This document shows positions 33,045 to 63,695 of a stretch of DNA of 64,000 nt, piece by piece. The position numbers and the translations under genes are program-made. Under the pieces are notes generated by a model. The model ran no database searches. It was not told the origin of the DNA and saw only the letters and a list, made by a program, of their open reading frames with translations. The stretch lies in the sequence record OQ031495. One strand, written 5' to 3'. This DNA comes from Escherichia phage MRostami-2023e. Every line of letters starts with the position of its first letter. Within the stretch, counting starts at the first letter, position 1.

Positions 33045-35756
33045 ATGAAAGAATTTTACTTAACGGTTGAACAGATTGGTGATTCAATTTTTGAACGTTA
33101 CATCGATTCTAATGGCCGTGAACGTACTCGTGAAGTAGAATATAAACCATCACTGTTTGCTCATTGTCCAGAAAGTCAGGCTACGAAATATTTCGATATC
33201 TACGGTAAGCCGTGTACTCGTAAGTTGTTCGCCAATATGCGTGATGCCTCCCAATGGATTAAACGCATGGAAGATATCGGACTTGAAGCACTTGGCATGG
33301 ACGATTTCAAATTGGCGTATTTGTCTGACACTTATAACTATGAAATCAAATACGACCATACAAAAATTCGTGTGGCTAACTTCGACATCGAAGTAACATC
33401 TCCGGATGGGTTCCCTGAGCCTTCACAAGCAAAACATCCTATTGATGCTATCACCCATTATGACTCAATTGACGACAGGTTCTACGTATTTGATCTATTG
33501 AATTCTCCATATGGTAATGTAGAAGAATGGTCTATTGAAATCGCTGCTAAGCTTCAAGAACAAGGCGGTGATGAAGTTCCATCTGAAATTATCGATAAAA
33601 TCATTTATATGCCGTTCGATAACGAAAAAGAATTGTTGATGGAATATCTCAACTTCTGGCAACAGAAAACTCCTGTCATTTTGACTGGATGGAACGTTGA
33701 GTCATTTGATATTCCATATGTGTATAACAGAATCAAGAATATTTTTGGCGAATCTACTGCGAAACGGTTGTCACCACATCGTAAAACTCGTGTTAAAGTT
33801 ATCGAAAACATGTATGGTTCTCGTGAAATCATTACATTGTTCGGTATCTCTGTTCTTGATTACATTGACCTTTACAAAAAATTCTCTTTCACAAACCAAC
33901 CGTCGTATTCTCTGGATTACATTTCAGAATTTGAATTGAACGTTGGTAAACTGAAATATGACGGCCCTATTTCTAAGCTTCGTGAAAGCAATCACCAACG
34001 ATATATTTCTTATAACATTATCGACGTGTATCGTGTATTGCAAATTGATGCTAAGCGTCAGTTCATCAACTTGAGTTTAGACATGGGTTATTATGCTAAG
34101 ATACAGATTCAATCTGTGTTTAGCCCAATTAAAACATGGGATGCTATTATTTTTAATAGCCTTAAAGAGCAGAACAAGGTGATTCCACAAGGTCGTTCGC
34201 ATCCAGTTCAACCTTACCCGGGTGCTTTTGTTAAGGAACCTATTCCAAATCGATACAAATATGTAATGAGTTTCGACCTTACATCTCTGTATCCAAGTAT
34301 TATTCGCCAAGTGAATATTAGCCCAGAAACAATAGCAGGAACGTTTAAAGTAGCTCCATTGCATGATTATATTAACGCTGTTGCTGAACGTCCTTCAGAT
34401 GTGTACAGTTGCTCTCCTAACGGCATGATGTATTATAAAGACCGTGACGGTGTAGTTCCAACTGAAATCACTAAGGTCTTTAATCAACGTAAAGAACATA
34501 AAGGTTACATGCTTGCAGCTCAACGTAATGGTGAAATAATTAAAGAGGCATTGCATAATCCTAATCTTTCTGTTGACGAACCATTAGATGTTGATTATCG
34601 TTTCGACTTCAGCGATGAGATTAAAGAAAAGATTAAAAAGTTGTCTGCTAAATCTCTTAATGAAATGTTGTTTAGAGCTCAACGTACTGAAGTTGCAGGT
34701 ATGACTGCCCAAATTAACCGTAAATTGCTTATCAACTCACTTTATGGTGCACTTGGAAACGTTTGGTTCCGTTATTACGATTTGCGTAATGCAACTGCAA
34801 TCACAACATTTGGTCAAATGGCTTTACAGTGGATTGAACGTAAAGTTAATGAATATCTGAATGAAGTTTGTGGTACAGAAGGTGAAGCTTTCGTTCTTTA
34901 TGGTGATACAGACTCTATTTACGTATCTGCTGATAAAATTATCGATAAGGTTGGTGAATCTAAATTCCGTGATACTAACCATTGGGTAGACTTCTTAGAT
35001 AAGTTTGCACGTGAACGTATGGAACCAGCTATTGATAGAGGTTTCCGTGAAATGTGTGAATACATGAACAATAAACAACACTTAATGTTCATGGACCGAG
35101 AAGCTATCGCTGGTCCTCCACTCGGTTCTAAAGGTATTGGTGGATTCTGGACTGGTAAGAAACGTTATGCATTAAACGTGTGGGATATGGAAGGTACTCG
35201 TTACGCTGAGCCTAAACTCAAAATCATGGGTCTAGAGACTCAGAAATCTTCGACCCCTAAAGCAGTACAGAAAGCTCTTAAAGAATGTATTCGTCGTATG
35301 CTTCAAGAAGGTGAAGAATCATTACAAGAATATTTTAAAGAGTTTGAAAAAGAATTCCGTCAATTGAATTATATTAGCATCGCGTCGGTATCTTCTGCGA
35401 ATAACATTGCTAAATATGACGTCGGTGGATTCCCTGGTCCCAAATGCCCGTTCCATATTCGTGGAATTCTGACGTATAACCGGGCTATCAAAGGTAATAT
35501 CGATGCGCCGCAAGTTGTAGAAGGTGAAAAAGTATATGTTCTGCCTTTACGTGAAGGAAACCCATTCGGTGATAAATGTATCGCATGGCCTTCTGGTACT
35601 GAAATCACAGATTTAATTAAAGACGACGTACTTCATTGGATGGACTACACTGTTCTCCTTGAGAAGACATTTATTAAACCACTTGAAGGATTCACATCAG
35701 CAGCGAAACTCGATTACGAGAAGAAAGCATCTCTGTTCGATATGTTCGATTTTTGA
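33045..35756 (+). CDS. 43: DNA polymerase gp43 (family B)
   Basis: 903 aa; exonuclease FDIE, polymerase motifs SLYPSII and YGDTDS. Confidence 0.95.
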   Translation: MKEFYLTVEQIGDSIFERYIDSNGRERTREVEYKPSLFAHCPESQATKYFDIYGKPCTRKLFANMRDASQWIKRMEDIGLEALGMDDFKLAYLSDTYNYEIKYDHTKIRVANFDIEVTSPDGFPEPSQAKHPIDAITHYDSIDDRFYVFDLLNSPYGNVEEWSIEIAAKLQEQGGDEVPSEIIDKIIYMPFDNEKELLMEYLNFWQQKTPVILTGWNVESFDIPYVYNRIKNIFGESTAKRLSPHRKTRVKVIENMYGSREIITLFGISVLDYIDLYKKFSFTNQPSYSLDYISEFELNVGKLKYDGPISKLRESNHQRYISYNIIDVYRVLQIDAKRQFINLSLDMGYYAKIQIQSVFSPIKTWDAIIFNSLKEQNKVIPQGRSHPVQPYPGAFVKEPIPNRYKYVMSFDLTSLYPSIIRQVNISPETIAGTFKVAPLHDYINAVAERPSDVYSCSPNGMMYYKDRDGVVPTEITKVFNQRKEHKGYMLAAQRNGEIIKEALHNPNLSVDEPLDVDYRFDFSDEIKEKIKKLSAKSLNEMLFRAQRTEVAGMTAQINRKLLINSLYGALGNVWFRYYDLRNATAITTFGQMALQWIERKVNEYLNEVCGTEGEAFVLYGDTDSIYVSADKIIDKVGESKFRDTNHWVDFLDKFARERMEPAIDRGFREMCEYMNNKQHLMFMDREAIAGPPLGSKGIGGFWTGKKRYALNVWDMEGTRYAEPKLKIMGLETQKSSTPKAVQKALKECIRRMLQEGEESLQEYFKEFEKEFRQLNYISIASVSSANNIAKYDVGGFPGPKCPFHIRGILTYNRAIKGNIDAPQVVEGEKVYVLPLREGNPFGDKCIAWPSGTEITDLIKDDVLHWMDYTVLLEKTFIKPLEGFTSAAKLDYEKKASLFDMFDF

Positions 35757-35796: not shown

Positions 35797-36432
35797 ATGA
35801 AAACTACTCCTATTACTATCGCTATTGACGCAATCATAAAACAAGCTTCTTCTTTGGCCGCTATGGCCAAAGTAATTAGTCAAAACCCTGCTCGTTATAA
35901 TGCTATTCTAGAAACTCTTCGACGCCCTGGACTTAGTAATTATGAAAGCCGAGTAATTATTACAGGTGTTGGTAAGAATGCTAATATTGCAACTAAAGCG
36001 TCTGAGACATTTGCTTCACTCGGTATCCCGAGTATGTACTTGAACACTGGGCATTATTCTCACGGTGATGCAGGATTTATTGCGCCTAATGATGTGTTGA
36101 TTCATATTAGTCGTTCTGGTAAAACTGAAGAAATGATAGGCGTGGCTAAGCATCTTAAAATGATTCGCCCGAACGTCAAACAGATTCTGTTGCATTGTAA
36201 CCCAGACATTCCACAAGAATACGAAGCCCTTTTTGATTACTCTTTCTGTACAGGCATCGCGGTAGAAGTTGATGAGAATTCTCTGGCTCCGACTATGTCC
36301 ACTACATTGTTGTTAGCGCTTATCGATACGTTTGCTATCAACCTTTCGTCTGAACGTGGATTTACCTCTAATGACTTCCTTAAGTTCCACCCTGGCGGTG
36401 CACTAGGTGCCATGTTACGAGGCGAACAATGA
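35797..36432 (+). CDS. SIS-domain sugar-phosphate isomerase, KdsD/GutQ-like (putative D-arabinose-5-phosphate isomerase)
   Basis: VIITGVGKNANIA...GHYSHGDAG...HISRSGKTEE...LAPTMSTTLLLAL...HPGGALG align with the KdsD SIS domain as recalled; no CBS domains. Confidence 0.75.
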   Translation: MKTTPITIAIDAIIKQASSLAAMAKVISQNPARYNAILETLRRPGLSNYESRVIITGVGKNANIATKASETFASLGIPSMYLNTGHYSHGDAGFIAPNDVLIHISRSGKTEEMIGVAKHLKMIRPNVKQILLHCNPDIPQEYEALFDYSFCTGIAVEVDENSLAPTMSTTLLLALIDTFAINLSSERGFTSNDFLKFHPGGALGAMLRGEQ

Positions 36433-36572
36433 AAGCAATAACAATAGGACTTTTACTATTGATGCTTGTCATGACTATCTACTGGAGCTTAACGGCTCCA
36501 GTAATGATTCCAACACTTGTAATTGGATGGATTATGATTGGACTACAAGCAAAGTATGAATGCTTTAACTAG
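36429..36572 (+). CDS. Small hydrophobic protein
   Basis: 47-aa ORF with two hydrophobic stretches; below track cutoff. Confidence 0.3.
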   Translation: MKAITIGLLLLMLVMTIYWSLTAPVMIPTLVIGWIMIGLQAKYECFN

Positions 36573-36613
36573 AATAGTGTACAATACTCCTACTTACCAA
36601 TGAGGACCACAAC

Positions 36614-38299
36614 ATGAAAAAAGCTGTTATTCTTGGTGCTGGACTGGCAACTCGTTTGTATCCAATAACGCATCATATTCCTAAGGTGCTTGTTAACTAT
36701 AAACAAGACACTATTCTGAGCAATTTGTATACAATTTATTCTGACCTTGGCGCAGATGAAATTATTGTAGTAGTTCATTCAAAATTTGCTGAAACTGTTC
36801 GAGCTTATTGTGAGCAAGAAGGGTTCAATGTGACTATTCGTACAGTTGATGAAGCGTATGGTTCTGCTTATGCTCTTGCTAAATTACACAAAGATTTAGA
36901 CGGCCATAATGTAATTGTTAACTGGTGTGATATTATTCCGGATTTTGGTTCATGGTCTTGGAATGTTAACGCAATCTATGTTAAGGGTGACGAATGTCGA
37001 TATAATTTCGACGGTGAAAATATCACTAACGTAGGTTCAACAGGTGGTAATGTTGTAGGAATTTATCAGTTCAAAGACTGGGAATTCTATATGGGTTCTA
37101 CCGATGAGGAAATTCATGAATACTGCAAAGGACGTGATTTCGTAGAATTCCTTTACGGCAGCGCATTCAATAAATCAGAGCTTATGAATCTAATTGATTT
37201 AGGTGATATGCCTAAACTTGAAAAAGCTCATGAAGTTCGTGAACTTAATCGTAGTTTTAATGCAGTTGAAATTGGTGAAGAAACTGTAACTAAATTCGCA
37301 TTAACCGAACAGGGTCGAGCTCTTCAGAAAGATGAGATTTCATGGTATCTTAAAGTGAAATCAGATTCAGTTCCTCAGTTAGTTTCTGTTAATGAAAATA
37401 ACTTTGAAATGGAACGCATTAAAGGTAAGCCGGCATTTGAATATATTAAATCAAAATCAAGTCTTGCTCGTCCACAAATTATTGATGCAATTTTAGATGC
37501 ACTGAAATTCAGCACAGACACTTATTTTGTAAGTCCTGAAACTGTTCGCCGTGATTTCACTAAAGAATTCTATACGAAAGTTATTGATCGTTGTGAAAGT
37601 ATTCAACCATTGATTGATTCATTTGGTAAAATCACACATGTGAACTACACTAAGATTGGGCGTCTGAAGCCAATGTTGAAACAAGCTTTAGAACATCTTA
37701 TTCGTTATCATAACCGTTCTCAGGGACAGTACTCTGTTATTCACGGTGACCCGAACTTCAGTAATACTATGATTACTGATAACGGCGAAGTCAAGTTTAT
37801 CGACCCTCGTGGATATTTTGGCGAAACCAAGATTTACGGGCCAAAATTGTATGATGAAGCTAAAGTGCTTTATGCTGTTTCAGGTTATGATGAATTCAAT
37901 GCTAATCCGGCCTGGGGACAGTTTACTATTGATGAAACAACTTGTAATGTGACTATTAACATCAATCCATTAGTTTACAAATATGGAAAGATGAGTTCGT
38001 TTAACGAGTATCATCATTTGGCAGTGGCAATTATCTGGATTGCATTAGGTGGTTATTTCAAGAATAATCCACTTAAAGCGGTTGCCGCATATTATAAAGG
38101 TATGGAACTTCTGACTAAGCAATTACGTAACATGGGCCGTGTACTTCAAGACGGCTCTATTAGTTATGACGTAGCAGAACCTGTAACGGCTACTCTGATT
38201 ACAAAAAATCCGGGTAAATGGGTACTAACTGATAAAGAAACTGGTGTTTCCTATCGTCCAATCGGTGGCGATATCACTCATCAATGGGAACGAATCTAA
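36614..38299 (+). CDS. Bifunctional sugar-1-phosphate nucleotidyltransferase / sugar kinase
   Basis: N-terminal AVILGAGLATRL nucleotidyltransferase signature; C-terminal VIHGDPNFSN and VKFIDPRG kinase motifs (APH/choline-kinase type). Confidence 0.7.
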   Translation: MKKAVILGAGLATRLYPITHHIPKVLVNYKQDTILSNLYTIYSDLGADEIIVVVHSKFAETVRAYCEQEGFNVTIRTVDEAYGSAYALAKLHKDLDGHNVIVNWCDIIPDFGSWSWNVNAIYVKGDECRYNFDGENITNVGSTGGNVVGIYQFKDWEFYMGSTDEEIHEYCKGRDFVEFLYGSAFNKSELMNLIDLGDMPKLEKAHEVRELNRSFNAVEIGEETVTKFALTEQGRALQKDEISWYLKVKSDSVPQLVSVNENNFEMERIKGKPAFEYIKSKSSLARPQIIDAILDALKFSTDTYFVSPETVRRDFTKEFYTKVIDRCESIQPLIDSFGKITHVNYTKIGRLKPMLKQALEHLIRYHNRSQGQYSVIHGDPNFSNTMITDNGEVKFIDPRGYFGETKIYGPKLYDEAKVLYAVSGYDEFNANPAWGQFTIDETTCNVTININPLVYKYGKMSSFNEYHHLAVAIIWIALGGYFKNNPLKAVAAYYKGMELLTKQLRNMGRVLQDGSISYDVAEPVTATLITKNPGKWVLTDKETGVSYRPIGGDITHQWERI

Positions 38300-38685
38300 T
38301 GCACCGTGTAGAAAACATGCTTAATCTTTATTTTGATGTCGATGATTGTATAACAGAGTGGAATAACAATCGTGATTACGTGAACTTCAAGCCAGACGTC
38401 GAAATGGTGTCTGCCATTAATGCCCTGTATGATGCAGGGCATACCATAACGCTTTACACTGCTCGCGGTATGAAGTCAGTAGGTCCTGGACGTATAGCAA
38501 TTGACATTCTCCCAAGTCTGATTCAGAACTTGGCAAACATTGGCTTGAAGTACCATAATTTGCTAACACATAAACCAGTATATGATTGGATTATCGACGA
38601 CAAAGCTATGCGTCCTGACGAATTCAAAGCTCTTATGAATAAAGGCGAATTCGAAACATTTAAATCATATAAACCGAATCTATAA
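38299..38685 (+). CDS. Small HAD-like phosphatase (KdsC-like)
   Basis: LYFDVDDCITEW (DxD motif I), ITLYTARG (motif II), HKP...WIIDDKA (K and DD motifs); 128 aa. Confidence 0.5.
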   Translation: MHRVENMLNLYFDVDDCITEWNNNRDYVNFKPDVEMVSAINALYDAGHTITLYTARGMKSVGPGRIAIDILPSLIQNLANIGLKYHNLLTHKPVYDWIIDDKAMRPDEFKALMNKGEFETFKSYKPNL

Positions 38686-38742
38686 TAATTTAAGTAAGAC
38701 CTGCAAAAACCATCGCATCAATTAACGTGAGATGCAAAAAAA

Positions 38743-39903
38743 ATGAATACTTTTAAAATCGGAACGAATTTTGATTTAGCTCTTCTTGATAAAATCGTAG
38801 AGCTCAATAAAACTTATCCTAATAGCTTGATAAACGAAGTATACGGCTCTACAAGAGAAATGGCTTTTGTAGCAGCCAGACCTGATTTTAGGCTTCCTGA
38901 CGTTGACAAAAAGATGTTAGAAGATTACGTTAAACGTTGTAACGAATTAGGTATTTGCTTTAACTATACACTCAACACGATAAATCCGGGTTCAAAAAGA
39001 GAACTAGTTGAGTGGAAGAAGAAAGCTATTCAGGACTATGTTCAGTATCTTTGGTCAATAGGCGTATGGCGTATTACTATCGCTAACCCTGTTGTTATGG
39101 AAATTGTTCGTGAAGTCAATAAAGACATTGAGATTGAAGTTTCAACAATTCTACATGTCGATGCTGTAACTCAAATCAAATACTTGCATGACCAGTATAA
39201 TATCAAAAAGGTCTGCTGTGGAATTCATAAGAACCGTTCAGTTTCTTTCCTGAAGCGTGCAGCAGAGTTTTGCAATAAGAACAATATAATATTTGAAGTT
39301 CTTGTAAATGAGTTCTGTTCTAATGCTGGTAAAGGGTATACAACACATTGTAGCTATCGTGACTCTTGCTATATTTTCCATAGTACTGATGTTACAGCTG
39401 ATGATGCTAAATCCTTAAATGGATATCCTATGCAGCACTGTATTAAAGCTCGTGATACAGACCCATTTAACTGGTTGAGAACTCGTTTTGTTCGTCCACA
39501 AGATTTGAAACTTTATAATGATATTGGTATCACTCAATTTAAAGTTTCGGGACGTACAGGTAGCACAGACTACATTTTGAAAGTTCTTGAAGCATACGCT
39601 TCTGAAAAGTTTGAAGGTAATTTGTTAGAATTGTGGAAGCCTTTAGAGACCATTTTCACTCTTGAAAATGAGACCGAGTTTTCACATACGGTAAATATTG
39701 AAACCTCTTTGTTAGATGGCTTTTTAGAAAAAAGGTGGTTCAGACATCCAGATTTCGATTGTGCTAATGAAATCTGCGGGACGACGTGTACATATTGTGA
39801 AAGATATTATAAACGTCAGTTATCTAAAAACGGGTTAGCAGAAAACTCTATATCTATTATTGATATAACTAACTCTGATGACGCTTTGAGGTACCCGGAA
39901 TGA
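38743..39903 (+). CDS. Cys-rich hypothetical protein (possible U32-like Fe-S fold)
   Basis: 386 aa; EVLVNEFCSNAGKGYTTHCSYRDSC and C-terminal CANEICGTTCTYC clusters. Confidence 0.5.
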   Translation: MNTFKIGTNFDLALLDKIVELNKTYPNSLINEVYGSTREMAFVAARPDFRLPDVDKKMLEDYVKRCNELGICFNYTLNTINPGSKRELVEWKKKAIQDYVQYLWSIGVWRITIANPVVMEIVREVNKDIEIEVSTILHVDAVTQIKYLHDQYNIKKVCCGIHKNRSVSFLKRAAEFCNKNNIIFEVLVNEFCSNAGKGYTTHCSYRDSCYIFHSTDVTADDAKSLNGYPMQHCIKARDTDPFNWLRTRFVRPQDLKLYNDIGITQFKVSGRTGSTDYILKVLEAYASEKFEGNLLELWKPLETIFTLENETEFSHTVNIETSLLDGFLEKRWFRHPDFDCANEICGTTCTYCERYYKRQLSKNGLAENSISIIDITNSDDALRYPE

Positions 39904-40139
39904 TTTCTAGAAAAACTTTTAATTATAATCTTAACGAAGAGATTTTGACTATTAAACTGAACACTAACGAACAAATTCTTAAAAAGGCCCTTATGGGCCT
40001 GTTTGAAACCAAAGCGGCTAAAGTGATTAAAGAACCTGTTCAATTGGAATACTACACTGATGCATTCCTTCATAGTGTTCTTGGAAGTATAGATTCTGAA
40101 GCTTTACGTTATATCAACATTGCCAAGAAATTCAAATAA
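39900..40139 (+). CDS. Hypothetical protein
   Basis: 79-aa ORF. Confidence 0.45.
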   Translation: MISRKTFNYNLNEEILTIKLNTNEQILKKALMGLFETKAAKVIKEPVQLEYYTDAFLHSVLGSIDSEALRYINIAKKFK

Positions 40140-40180
40140 GCTTTATGAATTGAGTATATAATAACTGTATTGAGGTAAAC

Positions 40181-40897
40181 ATGGGAAAACATAACACAAT
40201 GAAATATATCAAAGCCGCAGATTTTCAAACCGCATTTAAAGCAGTCAATCGTGAAATTTTAGAAAACCCGGAATTCGTAACTGATTCTCGTATTGGACGT
40301 TGTAATGAAATTGGGTCTATGACAGTAGTTGTTGACACTCCATCATCATTCAAAATGACCGACCCACGTATTAACCGCATCTCTTATGAATATGCCGAAG
40401 ACTTCTGGAAGTTTATGATTTCTGGTGGTACTGATGCAGAAGAAGCGTTTAAGGCATATCCTAATGTCGCTAAATTTATTTCTAAACCTAAATCAGACGC
40501 TTTGCCTGCAAACTTCAACACTTTCTACGGTCCTCGCATTGCGGCCCAATTACCGGCTCTTCTAAAAGAACTTAAAGAGAAGCCTAACTCTCGAAGAGTT
40601 GTGTTCCAAATTCTAGAAAGTTCTGATCAGGCTTTGCTTGATTCGGACGAAACGCTTGAATATCCATGTACTGACTCAGTGACTTATTATATTCGCGATG
40701 GTAAGCTTTATACCCACTGTCATATGCGTTCTCAGAACTGTGCTGTTGTTATGCAGTTGGATTTTTATCTCCAAGGAAAATTACTTCATTATATCGCTAA
40801 CGAATGTGGTGTAGAAGTTGGTGATTATACTCATACCATGGTAAGTGCCCATGTGTTTGAACGTGATTTTGATTATGTTAAAGGGTTTCTTGACTAA
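40181..40897 (+). CDS. 42: dCMP hydroxymethylase (thymidylate-synthase fold)
   Basis: TS-like core with nucleophile Cys in YPCTDSVTYY and RSQNCAVVMQLDF carrying Asp at the pyrimidine-specificity position; T4 gene 42 position. Confidence 0.7.
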   Translation: MGKHNTMKYIKAADFQTAFKAVNREILENPEFVTDSRIGRCNEIGSMTVVVDTPSSFKMTDPRINRISYEYAEDFWKFMISGGTDAEEAFKAYPNVAKFISKPKSDALPANFNTFYGPRIAAQLPALLKELKEKPNSRRVVFQILESSDQALLDSDETLEYPCTDSVTYYIRDGKLYTHCHMRSQNCAVVMQLDFYLQGKLLHYIANECGVEVGDYTHTMVSAHVFERDFDYVKGFLD

Positions 40898-41796
40898 TGG
40901 CTATTTTCCGCGTACCTATTTTGAGTATGCGGTCTTATGAAACTGGACAGTATGCTATCCTTAAGGATGGCAACTTCCAACTTCATTTGCACCGTGCTAA
41001 TCCAGGCGATGTGATTACATATCCACGTAATGCATCTGATATTAAAGAATGTGAACGTCTTTTCCCAGAATTTAAGTTTGTTCCATTATGGTATAAAGAT
41101 AACGCGTATAACACTCGTAAATATTTCTGGTCTGAAAATGAATTTGTGGTTGATTCATTAATTGCTTATTATGATTGTGATTTTCTAATCACAGATATCA
41201 CTGGATATGATGGCGCTTTTGACGTAGAATTCAATTTCAATATCACTGCAGACCCTAATAAACCACGTTTTTATATTGACGAATTCTTAAAAACCGACAT
41301 GTTGTCGGTTAATCGTTCACTTCAAACTACTGTGTTGAATGAACGTCAAAAAGAAGTGCTGGTTAACGCAGGTGCAGATGGTAATAAGATTATCGTAACG
41401 CAGAAAGTTATACGTCCTTCCGTCATGCAGCGTCTTGTAGGTGATTTGGCTCCTATTCATCTAGATGGTATTTTTCATCCATTTCGAATTAGTGACCCAT
41501 GCTATCGTTTTGAACAAGTTGTTGAATGCGCAATTCAATTAGGTCAACCGCTTTATATAACTGATCCAAATAATAGTTTCGACAGAAATAAGTATCCTGA
41601 AGAAGCGCTGATTCGAATTTTTAATCCAACTAAAACTGAGTACTATCAAATTCTTAAAGGACGTCCGAAGATTCAATATTTCGAAAATCCTGAAGAAGTA
41701 TTCCATCCAGGTCTTGGTGAGTTCATCTACTTTAACGCTTTAATTTCTTCGCCGTATAATATACCTAAATACGAAGATGTCGTAATCGAGGAATAA
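40897..41796 (+). CDS. Hypothetical protein at the T4 beta-glucosyltransferase position
   Basis: 299-aa ORF, no resemblance to T4 Bgt by eye. Confidence 0.5.
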   Translation: MAIFRVPILSMRSYETGQYAILKDGNFQLHLHRANPGDVITYPRNASDIKECERLFPEFKFVPLWYKDNAYNTRKYFWSENEFVVDSLIAYYDCDFLITDITGYDGAFDVEFNFNITADPNKPRFYIDEFLKTDMLSVNRSLQTTVLNERQKEVLVNAGADGNKIIVTQKVIRPSVMQRLVGDLAPIHLDGIFHPFRISDPCYRFEQVVECAIQLGQPLYITDPNNSFDRNKYPEEALIRIFNPTKTEYYQILKGRPKIQYFENPEEVFHPGLGEFIYFNALISSPYNIPKYEDVVIEE

Positions 41797-41797
41797 A

Positions 41798-42346
41798 ATG
41801 GCTAAAATTATTTTAGTAGATGGCCCAGATAATGCTGGTAAAACAACTTTCATTAATGACATAATGGAAATTAGTGAAAGATATGTAAAGATTGATTTCC
41901 CTAAACGAACAGTTGATGGACGTTTCGATGTTAAGTCTCGAAATGAAGTTGGCTGTTTCGAAACGATGTTGAATTATTTAGACCCTACTAAGATTTATCT
42001 GTTAGACCGTGGATATATTAGTAACTGGGTTTATGGACGTATTCGACAAGATGCGGATTCGGTTCTTGACGTTTATGAACAGGATTATATTCGTCTTTGC
42101 CAAAACCATGATGTGTTCACAATTATTTTAACACGTAACGAAATGACTGAAAGTTTTGAAGACGACCTTATTACTTTGTCTTCATTCGGTTTTAATACAG
42201 TCATTTCACATTTTGAAGAGTTTGCAATTCATAACAAAATCCAAACGTATCAATTACTTAATCATGATGGTGCTAACAAAGTTATAGGATTTAATGCAAG
42301 CGAACGTAATGATTTGATTACAGAAATCATCAAATGGGCTCGTTAA
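41798..42346 (+). CDS. P-loop kinase-like protein
   Basis: ILVDGPDNAGKTT Walker A near N-terminus, 182 aa. Confidence 0.5.
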   Translation: MAKIILVDGPDNAGKTTFINDIMEISERYVKIDFPKRTVDGRFDVKSRNEVGCFETMLNYLDPTKIYLLDRGYISNWVYGRIRQDADSVLDVYEQDYIRLCQNHDVFTIILTRNEMTESFEDDLITLSSFGFNTVISHFEEFAIHNKIQTYQLLNHDGANKVIGFNASERNDLITEIIKWAR

Positions 42347-42444: not shown

Positions 42445-43617
42445 ATGTCTGATTTAAAATCTCGTCTGATTAAAGCTTCTACTTCTAAAATGACTGCAGA
42501 CTTGACTAAGTCTAAGCTGTTTAATAATCGTGATGAAGTCCCTACTCGTATTCCGATGTTGAATATCGCACTAGGTGGTGCTCTGAATGCAGGATTGCAA
42601 TCAGGCTTGACTATTTTTGCTGCTCCTTCTAAACACTTTAAAACGTTGTTTGGGCTGACTATGGTCGCAGCGTATATGAAGAAATATAAAGATGCAATCT
42701 GTTTGTTTTATGACTCAGAATTCGGTGCTTCAGAATCTTATTTTCGTTCAATGGGTGTTGATTTAGACCGTGTAGTTCATACTCCGATTCAATCTGTCGA
42801 ACAACTTAAAGTTGATATGACTAATCAGCTTGACGCGATTGAACGCGGTGATAAAGTTATTATCTTTATCGATTCAATTGGTAATACTGCATCTAAGAAA
42901 GAAACCGAAGATGCGTTGAACGAGAAAGTTGTAGGTGATATGTCTCGTGCTAAGGCACTTAAATCTCTTTTCCGTATTGTGACTCCTTATCTGACTATTA
43001 AAGATATTCCGTGTGTTGCAATCAACCATACAGCAATGGAAATCGGCGGACTATATCCTAAAGAGATTATGGGTGGCGGTACAGGTATTCTTTACTCTGC
43101 TAACACTGTATTCTTTATCTCTAAACGTCAGGTTAAAGAAGGTACAGAATTGACCGGTTATGACTTCACGTTGAAAGCAGAAAAATCTCGTACAGTTAAA
43201 GAGAAATCTACTTTCCCGATCACGGTTAATTTTGATGGCGGTATTGATCCATTCAGTGGCTTGTTAGAAATGGCAACTGAAATTGGTTTTGTAGTTAAGC
43301 CTAAAGCTGGTTGGTATGCTCGTGAATTCCTTGACGAAGAAACAGGTGAAATGATTCGTGAAGAGAAATCGTGGCGTGCTAAAGCTACTGATTGTGTAGA
43401 ATTCTGGGGTCCGTTGTTTAAACACAAACCTTTCCGAGATGCAATTGAAACTAAATATAAACTAGGTGCTATCTCTTCTATTAAAGAAGTTGATGACGCT
43501 GTTAATGACCTTATTAATTGCAAAGCAACAACTAAAGTTCCTGTTAAAACTTCTGATGCTCCGTCTGCAGCAGATATAGAAAACGACCTTGACGAAATGG
43601 AAGATTTCGATGAATAA
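42445..43617 (+). CDS. uvsX: Recombinase UvsX (RecA-like)
   Basis: MSDLKSRLIKAS...IPMLNIALGG...FAAPSKHFKT...; 390 aa, matches T4 UvsX. Confidence 0.95.
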   Translation: MSDLKSRLIKASTSKMTADLTKSKLFNNRDEVPTRIPMLNIALGGALNAGLQSGLTIFAAPSKHFKTLFGLTMVAAYMKKYKDAICLFYDSEFGASESYFRSMGVDLDRVVHTPIQSVEQLKVDMTNQLDAIERGDKVIIFIDSIGNTASKKETEDALNEKVVGDMSRAKALKSLFRIVTPYLTIKDIPCVAINHTAMEIGGLYPKEIMGGGTGILYSANTVFFISKRQVKEGTELTGYDFTLKAEKSRTVKEKSTFPITVNFDGGIDPFSGLLEMATEIGFVVKPKAGWYAREFLDEETGEMIREEKSWRAKATDCVEFWGPLFKHKPFRDAIETKYKLGAISSIKEVDDAVNDLINCKATTKVPVKTSDAPSAADIENDLDEMEDFDE

Positions 43618-57331: not shown

Positions 57332-57826
57332 ATGAATATCAATACTACGGCTACTTACATCCTGAAAGATGAAAAACAAATTAACTGGTACGGTGCTTCA
57401 GTGCGAGCTTATGAAAAGTTTTGTGAAATTTTAGGTGCCACTCAAGGTAATAGTTTCACTATTGTTAACTTCATCAAACAAGCTGAAGGCCCTTGGTTAT
57501 TCTTAGAAATTAAAAATTCATATGGTACAATTTCTACTACCGCCCTTCCAAGCACCGACTTTGAACTGTTGATTGAAGAAGTAGAACCCGTTAAAGACAT
57601 CTGTATTGATATGGATATCGCTTGTATGTACGGTACTCTGATTAAGCCTATTGAGCCTACTGATTTGTTGTGTAAAGCTGTTTCAATTCGACGTCCGTTC
57701 GCAGGTCCAGTGAGTGGATGGGTAACTGATCAGTGGATTGAAGACGGTGTTGAACTTCTGAACGTTGTTCATGCAGGTGATTTTAGTGTAGTTCCACGTA
57801 GTGCTGTGGTTAATATTCTAAATTAA
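57332..57826 (+). CDS. Hypothetical protein, tandem paralog family member 1
   Basis: C-terminal GWVTDQWIEDGVELLNVVHAGDFSVVP shared with 57889 and 58363 ORFs. Confidence 0.5.
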   Translation: MNINTTATYILKDEKQINWYGASVRAYEKFCEILGATQGNSFTIVNFIKQAEGPWLFLEIKNSYGTISTTALPSTDFELLIEEVEPVKDICIDMDIACMYGTLIKPIEPTDLLCKAVSIRRPFAGPVSGWVTDQWIEDGVELLNVVHAGDFSVVPRSAVVNILN

Positions 57827-57829
57827 TGT

Positions 57830-57858
57830 TGTACATCCAAGGATGGATGGAGTATAAT
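57830..57858 (+). promoter_or_regulatory. Early promoter with embedded hairpin (repeat copy 4, compensatory variant)
   Basis: TGTACA, hairpin CATCCA-agga-TGGATG (both arms changed, pairing preserved), TATAAT 57853-57858. Confidence 0.55.
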
Positions 57859-57888
57859 GAATTCAACTTAAACAAAGAGAGAAAAATT

Positions 57889-58353
57889 ATGATTACTATT
57901 GGTGAAATTAAGCGTGTATCAACTGCATCCCGTTCTAAAGCCGCAGGTCGTCTGGTTGAAGTTGTCGGACTTCGCACAAATGGCATGGGACGTATTAAAG
58001 AAGTTAAAGTTCGAATCATTCCTAGCTTTGGACGTCAGGATACTCAGTACGCTTACGTAAGTCCTAAATTCCTGGAATCTCGTGTGAGTGCCCACTTTGC
58101 TTCAAGCGATATCGTTGAGCCTACTACACAGTTCAAATGGGCCTTGTGTAAAGGTGTTGAATTCCAGACTGATAAAGAATTTGACTTCATCGATGAATAC
58201 GGTTATCCAAACAAAACTGATATTATGTGTGGCTTCATTAGTGACCAATGGGTTGAAGATGGTGAAAAGTTATACAATATCGTATTCTTAGGTGACTTCC
58301 GAGTTGTTAAAGAATCTGAAATCACTCGCTATGTGTCTCCTCGTAAAGCTTAA
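57889..58353 (+). CDS. Hypothetical protein, tandem paralog family member 2
   Basis: IKRVSTASRSKAAGRLVEV...GFISDQWVEDGEKLYNIVFLGDFRVV. Confidence 0.5.
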   Translation: MITIGEIKRVSTASRSKAAGRLVEVVGLRTNGMGRIKEVKVRIIPSFGRQDTQYAYVSPKFLESRVSAHFASSDIVEPTTQFKWALCKGVEFQTDKEFDFIDEYGYPNKTDIMCGFISDQWVEDGEKLYNIVFLGDFRVVKESEITRYVSPRKA

Positions 58354-58362
58354 GGAATTATT

Positions 58363-58782
58363 ATGAATATTGTAAATCTCTCTACAGGTGATTACGTATA
58401 TGTATCTGTTGCTTCTCGCTCTAAAGTTGCCGGGAAGTTGGTTGAAGTTCTTTCTGTGAGTGATCCGGTTTTTGGTCGTAACGAAGTTAAAGTTCGTGAC
58501 GCCGATGGTAACATTGGTTACGTTAAAAGCCAATTCATTGAACCAGAAGAAAAAGCGTTCAAATGGGGACTATGCAGATCAGTTTCTGTTGAAAAAGACC
58601 ATGAATTCACTATTGCTGCGGCAACTGATGGAACACCGTGGAAAACTAAGCAAATCGCCGGATTTATTAGCGACCGTTGGGTAGAAGATGGTGTTAAGCT
58701 TTATAACATCGTTTTCGCTGGACAGTTCATGGTAGTTCCTGAATTCCAAATTAAAAAATATAGCCCAGCTGCTTTCGCATAA
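58363..58782 (+). CDS. Hypothetical protein, tandem paralog family member 3
   Basis: VSVASRSKVAGKLVEV...GFISDRWVEDGVKLYNIVFAGQFMVVP. Confidence 0.5.
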   Translation: MNIVNLSTGDYVYVSVASRSKVAGKLVEVLSVSDPVFGRNEVKVRDADGNIGYVKSQFIEPEEKAFKWGLCRSVSVEKDHEFTIAAATDGTPWKTKQIAGFISDRWVEDGVKLYNIVFAGQFMVVPEFQIKKYSPAAFA

Positions 58783-60734: not shown

Positions 60735-62552
60735 ATGATTAAAAATGAAATTAAGGTATTGTCGGATGTAGAACATATTAAGAAACGTAGTGGTATGTAT
60801 ATTGGTTCTTCGGCCAAAGAAGCACATGAGCGTTTTTTGTTTGGTAAATATCAACAAGTTGAATATGTTCCTGGTCTGGTTAAATTAATCGATGAGATTA
60901 TTGACAACTCGGTTGATGAAGCTATTCGTACATCATTTAAGTTTGCAAATAAAATTGATGTGCAAATTAAAAATAATCAAGTTTCTGTGGAAGATAACGG
61001 ACGTGGTATTCCTCAAGGTTTAGTTACCGACCAAACAGGTGAACAAATTCCTGGGCCTGTAGCAGCCTGGACTATTCCAAAGGCTGGTGGTAACTTTGGT
61101 GACGACTCTGAACGCAAGACTGGTGGTATGAACGGCGTCGGGAGTAGTTTAACTAATATCTTCTCTACGTTGTTTACAGGCATTACGTCAGATGGTGAAA
61201 ATGAAATCACTGTTAACTGTTCAAACGGAATGGAAAACAAATCATGGTCTTCTAAGAAATCTAAAGGTAAAGGCACTAAAGTAATCTTCACTCCTGATTT
61301 CACTTCATTTGAAGAGCATAATTTATCTCAAATTTATTTAGATATTACTTTAGACCGACTTCAAACATTGGCAGTCGTTTATCCTGACATCAAGTTCACA
61401 TTTAATGGTAAAAAGGTTGATGGTAATTTTAAACGATTTGCTAAACAATTTGGTGAAGATAATATCATTCAAGAAAATGATAAAGTCTCTATAGCATTCA
61501 CAACATCGCCAGATGGCTTCCGTCATTTAACTTATGTGAATAACATCCATACTAAAAATGGTGGTCATCATGTTGAATGCGTAATGGATGATATCTGCGA
61601 ACATCTTTTGCCCGGTATTAAAAAGAAATATAAGGGTATTGAAGTCACTAAAGCTCGTGTTAAAGAATGTCTCACAATGTTGATGTTTATTAGAGACATG
61701 AGCAACATGCGTTTTGATTCTCAGACTAAAGAACGTTTAACGTCAACGTATGGTGATATTCGTAATCATATCCAATTAGATGCTAAGAAAATTGCTCAGG
61801 CACTTCTTAAAAACGAAGCCTTGATTATGCCTATTGTTGAAGCAGCATTAGCTCGTAAATTGGCGGCAGAAAAGGCTGCAGAAACTAAAGCAGCTAAAAA
61901 GGCAACTAAAGCTAAGGTTCATAAGCATATTAAAGCTAACCAATGCGGTAAAGATGCAGATACGACATTGTTCTTAACAGAAGGTGATTCGGCAATTGGT
62001 TATCTCATTGATGTTCGTGACCGTGAACTACACGGTGGATTCCCATTACGTGGTAAGGTGATGAATAGCTGGGGTATGTCATATGCTGATATGATGAAGA
62101 ACAAAGAGCTCTTTGATATCTGTGCTATCACAGGTCTTATTCTTGGTGAAAAGGCAGAGAATACGAACTATCGTAATATTGCAATTATGACCGATGCCGA
62201 TCATGACGGTCTTGGAAGTATTTACCCGGCTTTGCTTGCTTTCTTTAGTAATTGGCCTGAATTGTTTGAACAAGGACGTATTCGCTTTGTTAAAACGCCT
62301 GTAATTATTGCACAAATTGGCAAAACTCAAAAATGGTTTTATACTGTAGCTGAGTATGAAGAAGTTAAAGATACACTGCCTAAGCATAGTATTAGATACA
62401 TCAAGGGATTAGGCTCCCTTGAAAAGTCAGAATATCGTGAAATGATTCAGAACCCTGTGTACGACGTAGTTAAACTTCCTGAAAATTGGAAAGAACTCTT
62501 TGAAATGTTGTTGGGTGATGATTCAGAACTTCGTAAAGAATGGATGTCCTAA
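60735..62552 (+). CDS. 39: DNA topoisomerase II large subunit (ATPase + TOPRIM), unsplit 39/60-type
   Basis: 605 aa; GHKL ATPase N-terminus and TOPRIM motifs LFLTEGDSA and IMTDADHDG in one reading frame. Confidence 0.9.
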   Translation: MIKNEIKVLSDVEHIKKRSGMYIGSSAKEAHERFLFGKYQQVEYVPGLVKLIDEIIDNSVDEAIRTSFKFANKIDVQIKNNQVSVEDNGRGIPQGLVTDQTGEQIPGPVAAWTIPKAGGNFGDDSERKTGGMNGVGSSLTNIFSTLFTGITSDGENEITVNCSNGMENKSWSSKKSKGKGTKVIFTPDFTSFEEHNLSQIYLDITLDRLQTLAVVYPDIKFTFNGKKVDGNFKRFAKQFGEDNIIQENDKVSIAFTTSPDGFRHLTYVNNIHTKNGGHHVECVMDDICEHLLPGIKKKYKGIEVTKARVKECLTMLMFIRDMSNMRFDSQTKERLTSTYGDIRNHIQLDAKKIAQALLKNEALIMPIVEAALARKLAAEKAAETKAAKKATKAKVHKHIKANQCGKDADTTLFLTEGDSAIGYLIDVRDRELHGGFPLRGKVMNSWGMSYADMMKNKELFDICAITGLILGEKAENTNYRNIAIMTDADHDGLGSIYPALLAFFSNWPELFEQGRIRFVKTPVIIAQIGKTQKWFYTVAEYEEVKDTLPKHSIRYIKGLGSLEKSEYREMIQNPVYDVVKLPENWKELFEMLLGDDSELRKEWMS

Positions 62553-62575
62553 GCTCCTTTGGGAGCTTCATTTTA
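62552..62575 (+). terminator. Terminator-like hairpin
   Basis: AGCTCC tttg GGAGCT followed by TCATTTT. Confidence 0.5.
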
Positions 62576-62594
62576 ATTTTAATAAGGCTTAATT

Positions 62595-63695
62595 ATGAAA
62601 GTTATGTTTATCCCATCTCGCGCAGTCCCATTTAATCCTGACCGTGTACAAGGTGGCCTTGAAGCAGTACATTTAAATGTGTTGAAATATTTAGTTTCTA
62701 TTGGTGCTGATATTGATTATATCGGCTTTGATAATGACACGTTTGGTGACTGGAAAGTTACACACCATCCTGTTGGTCATCTGACAAAATTCAGTCTAGG
62801 TATGAGTTATACTATGGCTCGTAAGATTGTTGAACTAGCCGGCATCCATGAATACGATTTTGTTGTTACTATGGAACCGACTAAACTAACCGTTCAGGCA
62901 ATTAAAGACGCAGGTCTCTCTAAAGTTCATAAGAATTTTATGGCAACACCATTTGAACCGGTATCTCGTGGTATTGTTCAAATTTGGGACCAGACTATTC
63001 AAATTCATAAGAATGGTGGTAAGAGTTATGCTCCCACTAAAGCCTTCCGTGAATTTGAACGCAAATATTGTTATATGACTTCAGGTCTGACTGACAAAAT
63101 TGATTATGATTATTGGCGAGCAAATCCGTTGTTTGAAGCCGAAGATTATCCGGTTATTTGTTTGAATGAGAAACCTGAAGTTCTTCCGGCGACTGATCTG
63201 ATTATTAGTGCACAACGTTATGACACTAAAATGCGTCGTACTGATGTTGCTCTTGAAGCAATTAAAGCACTAGGCGAAAATGGTATTGGTTATTGTCCTA
63301 GTAAATGGGCACCACCAGCTAAATATCCTGTTATTATTGATGCTCCACACAGTGAAATTATGGAACGTCTTAAAACAGCTAAAGCACTTATTAATACGTG
63401 TCCTGACACAGGTACGGTAGAGAATAGTTCTATTGAAGCCATCTCTAAAGGTGTCCCTGTAATCCAGTTAGTTTTTAAGGATTATCCTCATGCGACATTC
63501 GAATACGACCCAGATACTGTGCGTGTAGAAATTGATTCCTCTACTCCTAAGAAAGAAGTAGTTGCGCTTTACACAAAAGCTGTATTAGAATTCACTGACA
63601 CATACGAAGCTAGAGTTAAACGTGCTGAAGCAGTATGGAAGAAGTATAACCGAGATGCAGTTGTTGCGATGTGGGATAAAATCTTCACAGCGTAA
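62595..63695 (+). CDS. GT-B-fold glycosyltransferase (candidate DNA hydroxymethylcytosine glycosyltransferase)
   Basis: 366 aa; N-terminal MKVMFIPSRAVPFNPDRVQGGLEAVHLNVLKYL and C-terminal GTVENSSIEAISKGVPVI resemble GT4-type donor-binding motifs. Confidence 0.55.
   Translation: MKVMFIPSRAVPFNPDRVQGGLEAVHLNVLKYLVSIGADIDYIGFDNDTFGDWKVTHHPVGHLTKFSLGMSYTMARKIVELAGIHEYDFVVTMEPTKLTVQAIKDAGLSKVHKNFMATPFEPVSRGIVQIWDQTIQIHKNGGKSYAPTKAFREFERKYCYMTSGLTDKIDYDYWRANPLFEAEDYPVICLNEKPEVLPATDLIISAQRYDTKMRRTDVALEAIKALGENGIGYCPSKWAPPAKYPVIIDAPHSEIMERLKTAKALINTCPDTGTVENSSIEAISKGVPVIQLVFKDYPHATFEYDPDTVRVEIDSSTPKKEVVALYTKAVLEFTDTYEARVKRAEAVWKKYNRDAVVAMWDKIFTA

Follow-up and report, generated by a model that had tools for sequence, protein, structure and literature searches.

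A GT-B glycosyltransferase gene beside topoisomerase gene 39 of an RB69-like phage and its probable role in extending the arabinosyl chain of phage DNA

The DNA of bacteriophage RB69 carries mono- and di-arabinosylated 5-hydroxycytosine (5hoC), as determined by MS/MS and NMR, and the disaccharide was assigned as beta-D-Araf-(1->3)-alpha-D-Araf-O5-cytosine (Lee et al. 2026, PMC13326640). In this type of DNA the arabinose is ether-linked to the C5 hydroxyl of cytosine without a methylene bridge, and the earlier assignment as arabinosyl-5-hydroxymethylcytosine (arabinosyl-hmC) has been described as erroneous (PMC13390438). Within the biosynthetic machinery, RB69 gp48 was experimentally confirmed as a 5-hydroxy-dCMP synthase (Lee et al. 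2026). As for the transferases, no T4 alpha- or beta-glucosyltransferase was found anywhere in the RB69 genome by Thomas et al. (2018). In the proposal made both by Lee et al. (2026) and in the Durham-collection paper, the first (alpha) arabinose is placed by the glycosyltransferase of the modification cassette and the second (beta-1,3) one by the glycosyltransferase whose gene is flanked by rIIA and the topoisomerase gene; Lee et al. mark the role of RB69 gp3 as proposed, not confirmed.

The gene considered here is thus already known, having been nominated in 2018, its UDP structure released in 2025 and its second-transferase role published in 2025-2026. Two crystal structures of the phage HY126 glycosyltransferase, the apo form (PDB 9IQZ) and the UDP complex (9IR0), were both released on 2025-07-16, and a literature search on these codes returned no paper. 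In the literature searched, in which Mahler 2025 and He 2026 are represented through citing papers only, an assay was described for neither RB69 gp3 nor any ortholog. Biochemical data come from Acinetobacter phage DLP3, whose gp76 and gp77 jointly use UDP-Araf in vitro to place an arabinose on RB69 DNA (Lee et al. 2026); the third arabinose of DLP3 needs both proteins together.

The window analysed here is a stretch of 64,000 nucleotides from Escherichia phage MRostami-2023e (OQ031495), whose features are collected in Table 1. Escherichia phage vB_EQ1 gave a 100% match to the region, and some 150 RB69-like Mosigviruses matched it at 95-99%. The 366-aa ORF directly follows gene 39, as the initial annotation had placed it, with 42 nt between the gene 39 stop and the start of the ORF. 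The synteny gene 39 - glycosyltransferase - rIIA.1 - rIIA is fixed by the rIIA.1 homolog and matches the RB69 map, and the order gene 39 - ORF - rIIA.1 was also found at the IMG/VR loci L004-L006. The intergenic region contains a terminator-like hairpin, and the hairpin count was at chance level (1 site versus 0.9 expected from shuffles; not significant), as was the outcome of scanning the surroundings of the ORF for promoters and terminators. The distance of about 22 kb from the donor cassette, given in the initial annotation, is a fair figure, as the ORF lies 20.2 kb from the cassette end and 26.8 kb from its start.

Table 1. Position of the 366-aa glycosyltransferase gene, its sequence motifs, its neighbours and the sugar/base cassette in the window.
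Feature	Coordinates	Strand	Remarks
Sugar/base cassette	35797..42346	+	between DNA polymerase (33045..35756) and UvsX (42445..43617)
SIS-domain arabinose-5-phosphate isomerase (RB69 gp55)	35797..36432	+	99.5% identical
561-aa bifunctional sugar kinase / UDP-sugar pyrophosphorylase (RB69 gp52:53, HY126 AfhE analogue)	36614..38299	+	99% identical
133-aa HAD-like phosphatase (RB69 gp51, HY126 AfhF analogue)	38284..38685	+	98% identical; function from literature
386-aa U32-family protein (RB69 gp50), cassette member	38743..39903	+	Pfam Peptidase_U32
ThyA-like 5-hydroxy-dCMP synthase, makes acceptor base	40181..40897	+	100% identical to RB69 gp48
299-aa compact GT-B glycosyltransferase (RB69 gp46:47, DLP3 gp79)	40897..41796	+	predicted fold
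182-aa nucleotide (thymidylate-like) kinase (RB69 gp45)	41798..42346	+	98.9% identical; Lee et al. Table 1 (PMC13326640)
Gene 39, fused topoisomerase II large subunit, 605 aa	60735..62552	+	96% identical to RB69 gp39; upstream neighbour
Terminator-like hairpin AAGCTCC-TTTG-GGAGCTT with T-rich tail	62551..62568	+	between gene 39 and 366-aa ORF
AAGG Shine-Dalgarno-like element	62584-62587	+	7 nt 5' of the ATG of the 366-aa ORF
366-aa GT-B glycosyltransferase ORF	62595..63695	+	ATG start at 62595, stop ends 63695
GGLEAV, residues 20-25, N-terminal Gly-rich loop of first Rossmann-like domain	62652..62669	+	
Q207-R208-x-D210...R214, invariant basic pair, C-terminal domain	63213..63236	+	invariant columns
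GTVENSSIEAISKGVPVI, residues 273-290, homolog of the EX7E donor-binding segment of GT4 enzymes	63411..63464	+	non-canonical
rIIA.1 homolog, 66 aa	63788..63988	+	downstream neighbour of 366-aa ORF

The ORF product shows 99.2% identity to RB69 ORF003c/gp3 (NP_861693.1) over 366/366 residues, and its identity to the HY126 glycosyltransferase (PDB 9IQZ; E 6e-251) is 99%. Because this 99%-identical protein has been crystallised, also in complex with UDP (9IR0), the GT-B fold, with its two Rossmann-like domains and nucleotide-sugar cleft, and UDP binding can be taken as established experimental facts for a protein essentially identical to the one encoded in the window, in line with its initial annotation as a GT-B glycosyltransferase. 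The AlphaFold (AF2) model calculated for the ORF was poor owing to a shallow alignment of few relatives (pLDDT 58, six sequences), still matched GT-B structures and was used solely as a handle for the Foldseek search, the fold being taken from the solved structure. After the self matches, the best Foldseek hits were the GT-B enzymes PimA, BshA, MshA and tetrahydrobiopterin glucosyltransferase. The sole PHROGs result was PHROG 8302, a family of unknown function that matches the ORF over its full length (positions 1-366; E 1e-222).

GT4 is a family of retaining glycosyltransferases, and the ORF had been assigned to this type on the basis of a GGLEAV loop and an E-x7-E-like segment, GTVENSSIEAISKGVPVI. 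Both segments are present and conserved across the family. Glycines 20 and 21 were nearly invariant among 13 family members sharing 35-43% identity, and the family-wide invariants comprised G20-G21, Q207-R208-x-D210, R214, G273-T274-x-E276, S279, E281-A282, G286 and H299-A-T-x-E303. Thomas et al. (2018) aligned Gly-20 to Gly-15 of T4 alpha-glucosyltransferase, a beta-phosphate contact, and the Arg of the basic pair (Arg-207 in their numbering) to Arg-204 of the same enzyme; residues Q207-R208-x-D210...R214 are therefore best described as candidate diphosphate-binding residues. The description of the C-terminal segment as E-x7-E-like was correct in substance, since the second Glu is kept as E281 and is followed by A-I-S-K-G-V-P-V. 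The spacing differs, the motif of the ORF being E276-x4-E281; in a profile alignment to protein P0138 the canonical first Glu aligns to T272, and a canonical E-x7-E was not found in the ORF. P0138 is a genuine Pfam Glycos_transf_1 protein, which hhalign aligned to ORF residues 246-333 with 94% probability.

Family models gave a different picture from the fold. A Pfam scan of the ORF returned no family at E<=10, and NCBIfam returned none, even at E<=10 or E<=1. At permissive thresholds neither the ORF nor any of 12 relatives matched a Pfam or NCBIfam model, none of the 13 family members matched Glycos_transf_1 (PF00534) or Glyco_transf_4 (PF13439), two relatives gave sub-threshold matches to PF20706 (GT4-conflict), and the family profile retrieved no GT4 chain from the PDB sequences at E<=10; the ORF is thus placed outside the CAZy GT4 and Pfam PF00534/PF13439 models. 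The GT4-type assignment accordingly holds for the fold and for profile-profile similarity, a single hhalign comparison being behind the latter, and fails for the Pfam and NCBIfam glycosyltransferase models and for the canonical motif; on these comparisons the protein would be called GT4-like only in those two respects. The absence of agt and bgt noted in the initial annotation agrees with our scans and with the RB69 genome: neither the Pfam family of T4 alpha-glucosyltransferase (AGT) nor that of beta-glucosyltransferase (T4-Gluco-transf) matched the 366-aa ORF, ten further window ORFs (311-480 aa) or the cassette ORFs.

The sugar/base cassette was then compared with that of RB69. Its seven products are 98-100% identical to RB69 gp55, gp52:53, gp51, gp50, gp48, gp46:47 and gp45. 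The 561-aa protein combines a Pfam NTP_transferase domain with a kinase-like C-terminus, and it makes UDP-arabinofuranose according to He et al. 2026, as cited by Lee et al. (PMC13326640). Structures near-identical to the ThyA-like protein are available (9IQC, 9IR2 and 9IQU). Around the R-S-Q-N...L-D motif of this protein, an ungapped register gives D169N, the diagnostic change of Lee et al., together with N177D; this register is our own reading, the MAFFT alignment having placed a two-residue gap there. A 79-aa ORF beside the U32 gene was considered as a chorismate mutase, by comparison with Klebsiella phage KLB31, an identity that was not supported for this window, as the ORF showed no similarity and no Pfam match.

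Since the ThyA homolog of the window and RB69 gp48 agree at every residue (100% identity), the acceptor base predicted for this phage is 5-hydroxycytosine and not hmC, the acceptor named in the initial annotation. The same evidence bears on the idea that the 366-aa protein glucosylates hmC in the manner of the T4 alpha- or beta-glucosyltransferase, the literal sense of the initial annotation, with UDP-glucose as a possible donor. Distant GT-B kinship, expressed in an HHpred E value of 1.9e-24 to T4 alpha-glucosyltransferase (Thomas et al. 2018), and the UDP bound in the crystal structure are compatible with such a role. However, the only ThyA-family enzyme of the cassette corresponds to a proven 5-hydroxy-dCMP synthase and not to a hydroxymethylase, the DNA of RB69, NP and Bas46 carries arabinose on 5hoC with no glucosyl-hmC reported, virion DNA of close relatives reportedly contains neither hmC nor glucosyl-hmC by LC-MS, and the T4 glucosyltransferase families gave no Pfam match, so that we regard glucosylation of hmC as extremely improbable. 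The initial annotation had also presented the 366-aa ORF as the best transferase candidate, whereas the cassette encodes a second GT-B protein, of 299 aa, beside the 5-hydroxy-dCMP synthase.

The distribution of the two proteins was examined by six-frame searches of 50,697 phage records. The 366-aa family was found in 211 records, and the same set was obtained when two divergent members of the family served as queries. Mosigviruses of Escherichia and Shigella carry it at one place per record, 55 Acinetobacter records carry it at two places each, and one record is labelled 'Tegunavirus'; the Shewanella and Serratia phage records gave no match in these searches. The 299-aa glycosyltransferase was found in 348 records, in all phages of known chemistry that were compared, and also in phages of Klebsiella, Serratia, Yersinia, Proteus, Enterobacter, Edwardsiella, Erwinia and Shewanella. 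JS98-like Dhakavirus and phages of Klebsiella, Yersinia and Proteus have the cassette and lack the 366-aa family. When copy number was set beside DNA chemistry, Thanatos and LC53, with one arabinose, had no copy of the 366-aa family, RB69, NP, Bas46 and Bas47, with two arabinoses, had one copy, and DLP3, with three arabinoses, had two. Among these phages of known chemistry, the number of copies thus equals the number of arabinoses minus one. This phyletic pattern is the main independent evidence in support of the 366-aa protein as a putative second transferase.

Genomic context and relatives were also informative on the acceptor. Members of the 366-aa family occur solely in phages with the 5hoC/arabinose cassette; the window phage has a cassette 98-100% identical to that of RB69, and every Acinetobacter locus has both copies within the cassette, arranged in tandem immediately downstream of the nucleotide kinase gene. 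An exhaustive protein search of 1.84 billion representatives returned about 10 relatives or clusters of the ORF and one weak match, P0138 (E 5e-5), a word-indexed protein search returned 5 clusters, and an IMG/VR scan with the family profile returned 7 loci, mostly isolate genomes, and no new lineages. A protein of this fold might instead glycosylate something other than DNA, such as an LPS precursor or a lipid of the host envelope, in the manner of PimA and WaaG-type enzymes, and its connection with DNA modification would then be a coincidence. In favour of such a role, the GT4 enzymes nearest to it in structure work on lipids and small molecules, and its gene lies outside the cassette in Mosigviruses. 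The confinement of the family to cassette phages, its embedding in the Acinetobacter cassettes, the in vitro modification of DNA by its homologs and the near absence of cellular relatives all speak against a non-DNA acceptor, which we consider very unlikely. The role in phage DNA glycosylation assigned in the initial annotation, detached from the donor cassette, is thus supported.

The ORF is 43% identical to DLP3 gp77 and 40% identical to gp76 over the full length. In a neighbour-joining tree gp76 and gp77 are sister paralogs (98.5% bootstrap) and the window ORF lies outside their duplication. It is therefore co-orthologous to both, and the DLP3 biochemistry transfers to it at family level only. 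A specific orthology to gp77, the proposed second transferase of DLP3, was considered and rejected, as the tree makes the window ORF the outgroup to gp76 and gp77.

The 299-aa protein is 46% identical to DLP3 gp79, and the RB69 reference splits it into gp46:47 through a sequencing error. Its confident GT-B fold model argues that it is primarily a glycosyltransferase, and the model does not have a nucleotidyltransferase fold; an identity as mainly a pyrophosphorylase, as in one paper that describes the Thanatos homolog TH1_063 as a UDP-xylose pyrophosphorylase and not a transferase, was ruled out on this basis. It is the candidate first, base-proximal alpha-arabinosyltransferase. With two GT-B enzymes in the window, the 366-aa one is probably not the base-proximal transferase.

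The reverse assignment was nevertheless weighed, in which the 366-aa protein is the first arabinosyltransferase, acting on 5hoC, and the 299-aa protein serves elsewhere, for instance in activating the sugar or as the second transferase. With the base changed to 5hoC, this corresponds to the proposal of Thomas et al. (2018) and to the initial annotation. HMM and HHpred had led Thomas et al. to ORF003c as their foremost glycosyltransferase candidate, a GT4-like fold would, with an alpha-linked donor, give a retained alpha linkage like that of the base-proximal sugar, and no single DLP3 glycosyltransferase, gp79 included, was active on DNA containing only 5hoC (Lee et al. 2026); the report on the Thanatos homolog also fits this assignment. 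On the other hand, Thanatos, LC53 and more than 130 other cassette-bearing records were without the 366-aa family in six-frame searches with three queries, and phages without the family still put sugar on the base. Moreover, the DNA on which gp76 and gp77 act bears arabinose beforehand, and the fold of the 299-aa model is that of a transferase. In a citing paper, Bas46 without the 'arabinosyltransferase Aat' is described as viable and sensitised to a defence system. In the Bas46 annotation the ortholog of the 366-aa ORF alone is called arabinosyltransferase, so that the Aat of Bas46 and Bas47 is probably, from their annotation, the ortholog of the ORF. A viable deletion, as far as the citing paper describes it, is a better fit to a chain-extending than to a base-proximal enzyme. 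Overall, a base-proximal role for the 366-aa protein appears unlikely, although clearly less so than the two roles discussed above.

The 366-aa ORF therefore probably encodes a UDP-sugar-dependent GT-B enzyme that adds the second, beta-1,3-linked D-arabinofuranose to phage DNA; from the combined data we infer both the order of transfer, second rather than first, and the linkage formed. In the pathway that we propose, dCMP would be replaced by 5-hydroxy-dCMP through the ThyA-like synthase, and UDP-D-arabinofuranose would be made by the part of the cassette at 35.8-38.7 kb. The first alpha-D-arabinofuranose would be placed on the C5 hydroxyl, most likely by the 299-aa glycosyltransferase, and the 366-aa enzyme would then transfer a second D-arabinofuranose from UDP-Araf to O3 of the first sugar, yielding the di-arabinosyl base of RB69-type DNA. 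Glycosylation by the 366-aa enzyme would act on phage DNA after replication, and the longer glycan would confer extra protection from host defences. Considered as a whole, the initial interpretation correctly recognised a GT-B enzyme of DNA modification, named the wrong acceptor base and probably chose the wrong transfer step.

The stereochemistry of this step deserves a separate remark. The nearest structural relatives are GT4-type, and if UDP-D-Araf is alpha-linked, as is presumed, a transfer that yields a beta product would have to be inverting. A tentative reading, which we hold with much less confidence than the second transfer itself, is that the 366-aa protein is a GT4-like GT-B enzyme that has lost the first EX7E Glu and works as an inverting beta-D-arabinofuranosyltransferase on a DNA-borne sugar, possibly with a partner or in an oligomeric state, as the joint requirement for gp76 and gp77 and the multiple chains in 9IQZ suggest. 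If so, it would show an unusual stereochemistry for its structural class and would be a rare enzyme that extends a DNA glycan.

Depending on the length of the arabinose chain on cytosine, a phage is open to attack by different restriction enzymes, CRISPR systems and modification-dependent nucleases, and RB69-like phages are common in therapeutic collections. For the window phage, the present analysis has mainly a corrective value, in naming 5-hydroxycytosine as the acceptor and in recognising two GT-B enzymes.

Finally, the locus was compared with the known systems. RB69 ORF003c/gp3 and the HY126 glycosyltransferase share with the ORF the length of 366 aa, the position between gene 39 and rIIA.1 and a cassette 98-100% identical; three or four conservative substitutions separate the proteins, and no functional distinction was detected. 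DLP3 gp77 and gp76, the beta-arabinosyltransferases 2 and 3, belong to the same family and have all invariant motifs in common with the ORF, but they are tandem paralogs within the cassette, whereas the ORF is the sole copy in the window and lies 20 kb away from the cassette.

More distant likenesses concern the fold. PimA, BshA, MshA and WaaG also have two Rossmann-like domains, an N-terminal Gly-Gly loop and a C-terminal '...E-A-x-x-x-G-x-P-V', and a basic pair six residues apart, which we take to be R/K in PimA, is a further trait that the ORF shares with CAZy GT4-type enzymes. Unlike these four enzymes, the 366-aa protein has T272 in place of the first EX7E Glu, a predicted beta linkage, a DNA-borne acceptor and no Pfam or NCBIfam GT4 match. 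With the T4 alpha-glucosyltransferase (GT72) and beta-glucosyltransferase (GT63) it has in common the GT-B fold, a UDP-sugar donor, post-replicative glycosylation of a modified cytosine and an anti-restriction role. It differs from them in the lack of a sequence-family match, in the sugar, which is D-arabinofuranose and not glucose, in the base, which is 5-hydroxycytosine and not 5-hydroxymethylcytosine, and in the likely acceptor, a sugar hydroxyl and not the base. In function the 366-aa enzyme would thus be closer to the T2/T6 enzyme that builds gentiobiosyl-hmC than to the T4 glucosyltransferases.

U32 proteins, RlhA, TrhP and UbiU/V among them, are hydroxylases that depend on prephenate and not on O2; 5-hydroxycytidine in rRNA is the product of RlhA. 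On the basis of this analogy, the U32 protein homologous to RB69 gp50 could provide an anaerobic path to 5-hydroxycytosine, complementing the O2/flavin-dependent synthase of the cassette. A search of phage records returned 221 records carrying the protein at 82% identity or above, whose hosts (Escherichia, Klebsiella, Serratia, Proteus, Yersinia, Shewanella and others) are all facultatively anaerobic. The same search detected gp50 in none of the Acinetobacter phages, although the cassette is present in 57 of them; Acinetobacter is a strict aerobe. Within NCBIfam the only similarity of the protein was a weak one to UbiU. Lee et al. (PMC13326640) labelled gp50 a "sugar or heterocycle reductase", and their treatment of it brings up neither U32 nor prephenate.

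The gene following the U32 gene in Klebsiella phage KLB31 is a genuine chorismate mutase (PF01817), and a chorismate mutase is also annotated in this slot in an Erwinia phage record. In the window, the slot is occupied by a 79-aa ORF that cannot be recognised as a chorismate mutase, lacking both similarity to one and any Pfam hit.

Coordinates of the features in the window and in the comparison phage loci
Feature	Window	Comparison locus
gp52/gp53 homolog	36614-38299	L003 6095-7781
U32 "peptidase" protein, RB69 gp50 homolog, cassette member	38743-39903	
79-aa ORF adjoining the U32 gene	39900-40139	
Span compared for U32 and the 79-aa slot		L012 2483-3894
gp46/gp47 homolog	40897-41796	L003 2598-3498
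175-aa ORF adjoining the 139-aa ORF	57826-58353	
139-aa ORF adjoining the 175-aa ORF	58363-58782	
Topoisomerase large subunit, gene 39	60735-62552	
366-aa glycosyltransferase copy, Shigella phage JK45		L011 301-1401
136-aa ORF, Shigella phage JK45		L011 1494-1904

As for the 366-aa glycosyltransferase family, a full-length copy in Shigella phage JK45 (MK962757.1) precedes a 136-aa ORF in which the C-terminal part of the enzyme is repeated; the arrangement stems either from partial duplication in tandem or from an artefact of assembly. Within the phage collection, a family member with less than 60% identity occurs in one "Tegunavirus" record, for which di-arabinosylated DNA is predicted, while the cassette-bearing Yersinia-named phages were absent from the hit lists of the family.

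The gp46/gp47 and gp52/gp53 homologs are each encoded by one intact ORF in the window, in agreement with published statements that the corresponding splits in the RB69 reference genome are sequencing errors. The translations of the adjoining 175-aa and 139-aa ORFs have long near-identical stretches in common, e.g., GFISDQWVEDGEKLYNIVFLGDF versus GFISDRWVEDGVKLYNIVFAGQF, and the two genes look like tandem paralogs. Finally, the topoisomerase large subunit is encoded by a single 605-aa ORF, as annotated in RB69, whereas in T4 this subunit is split into gp39 and gp60.
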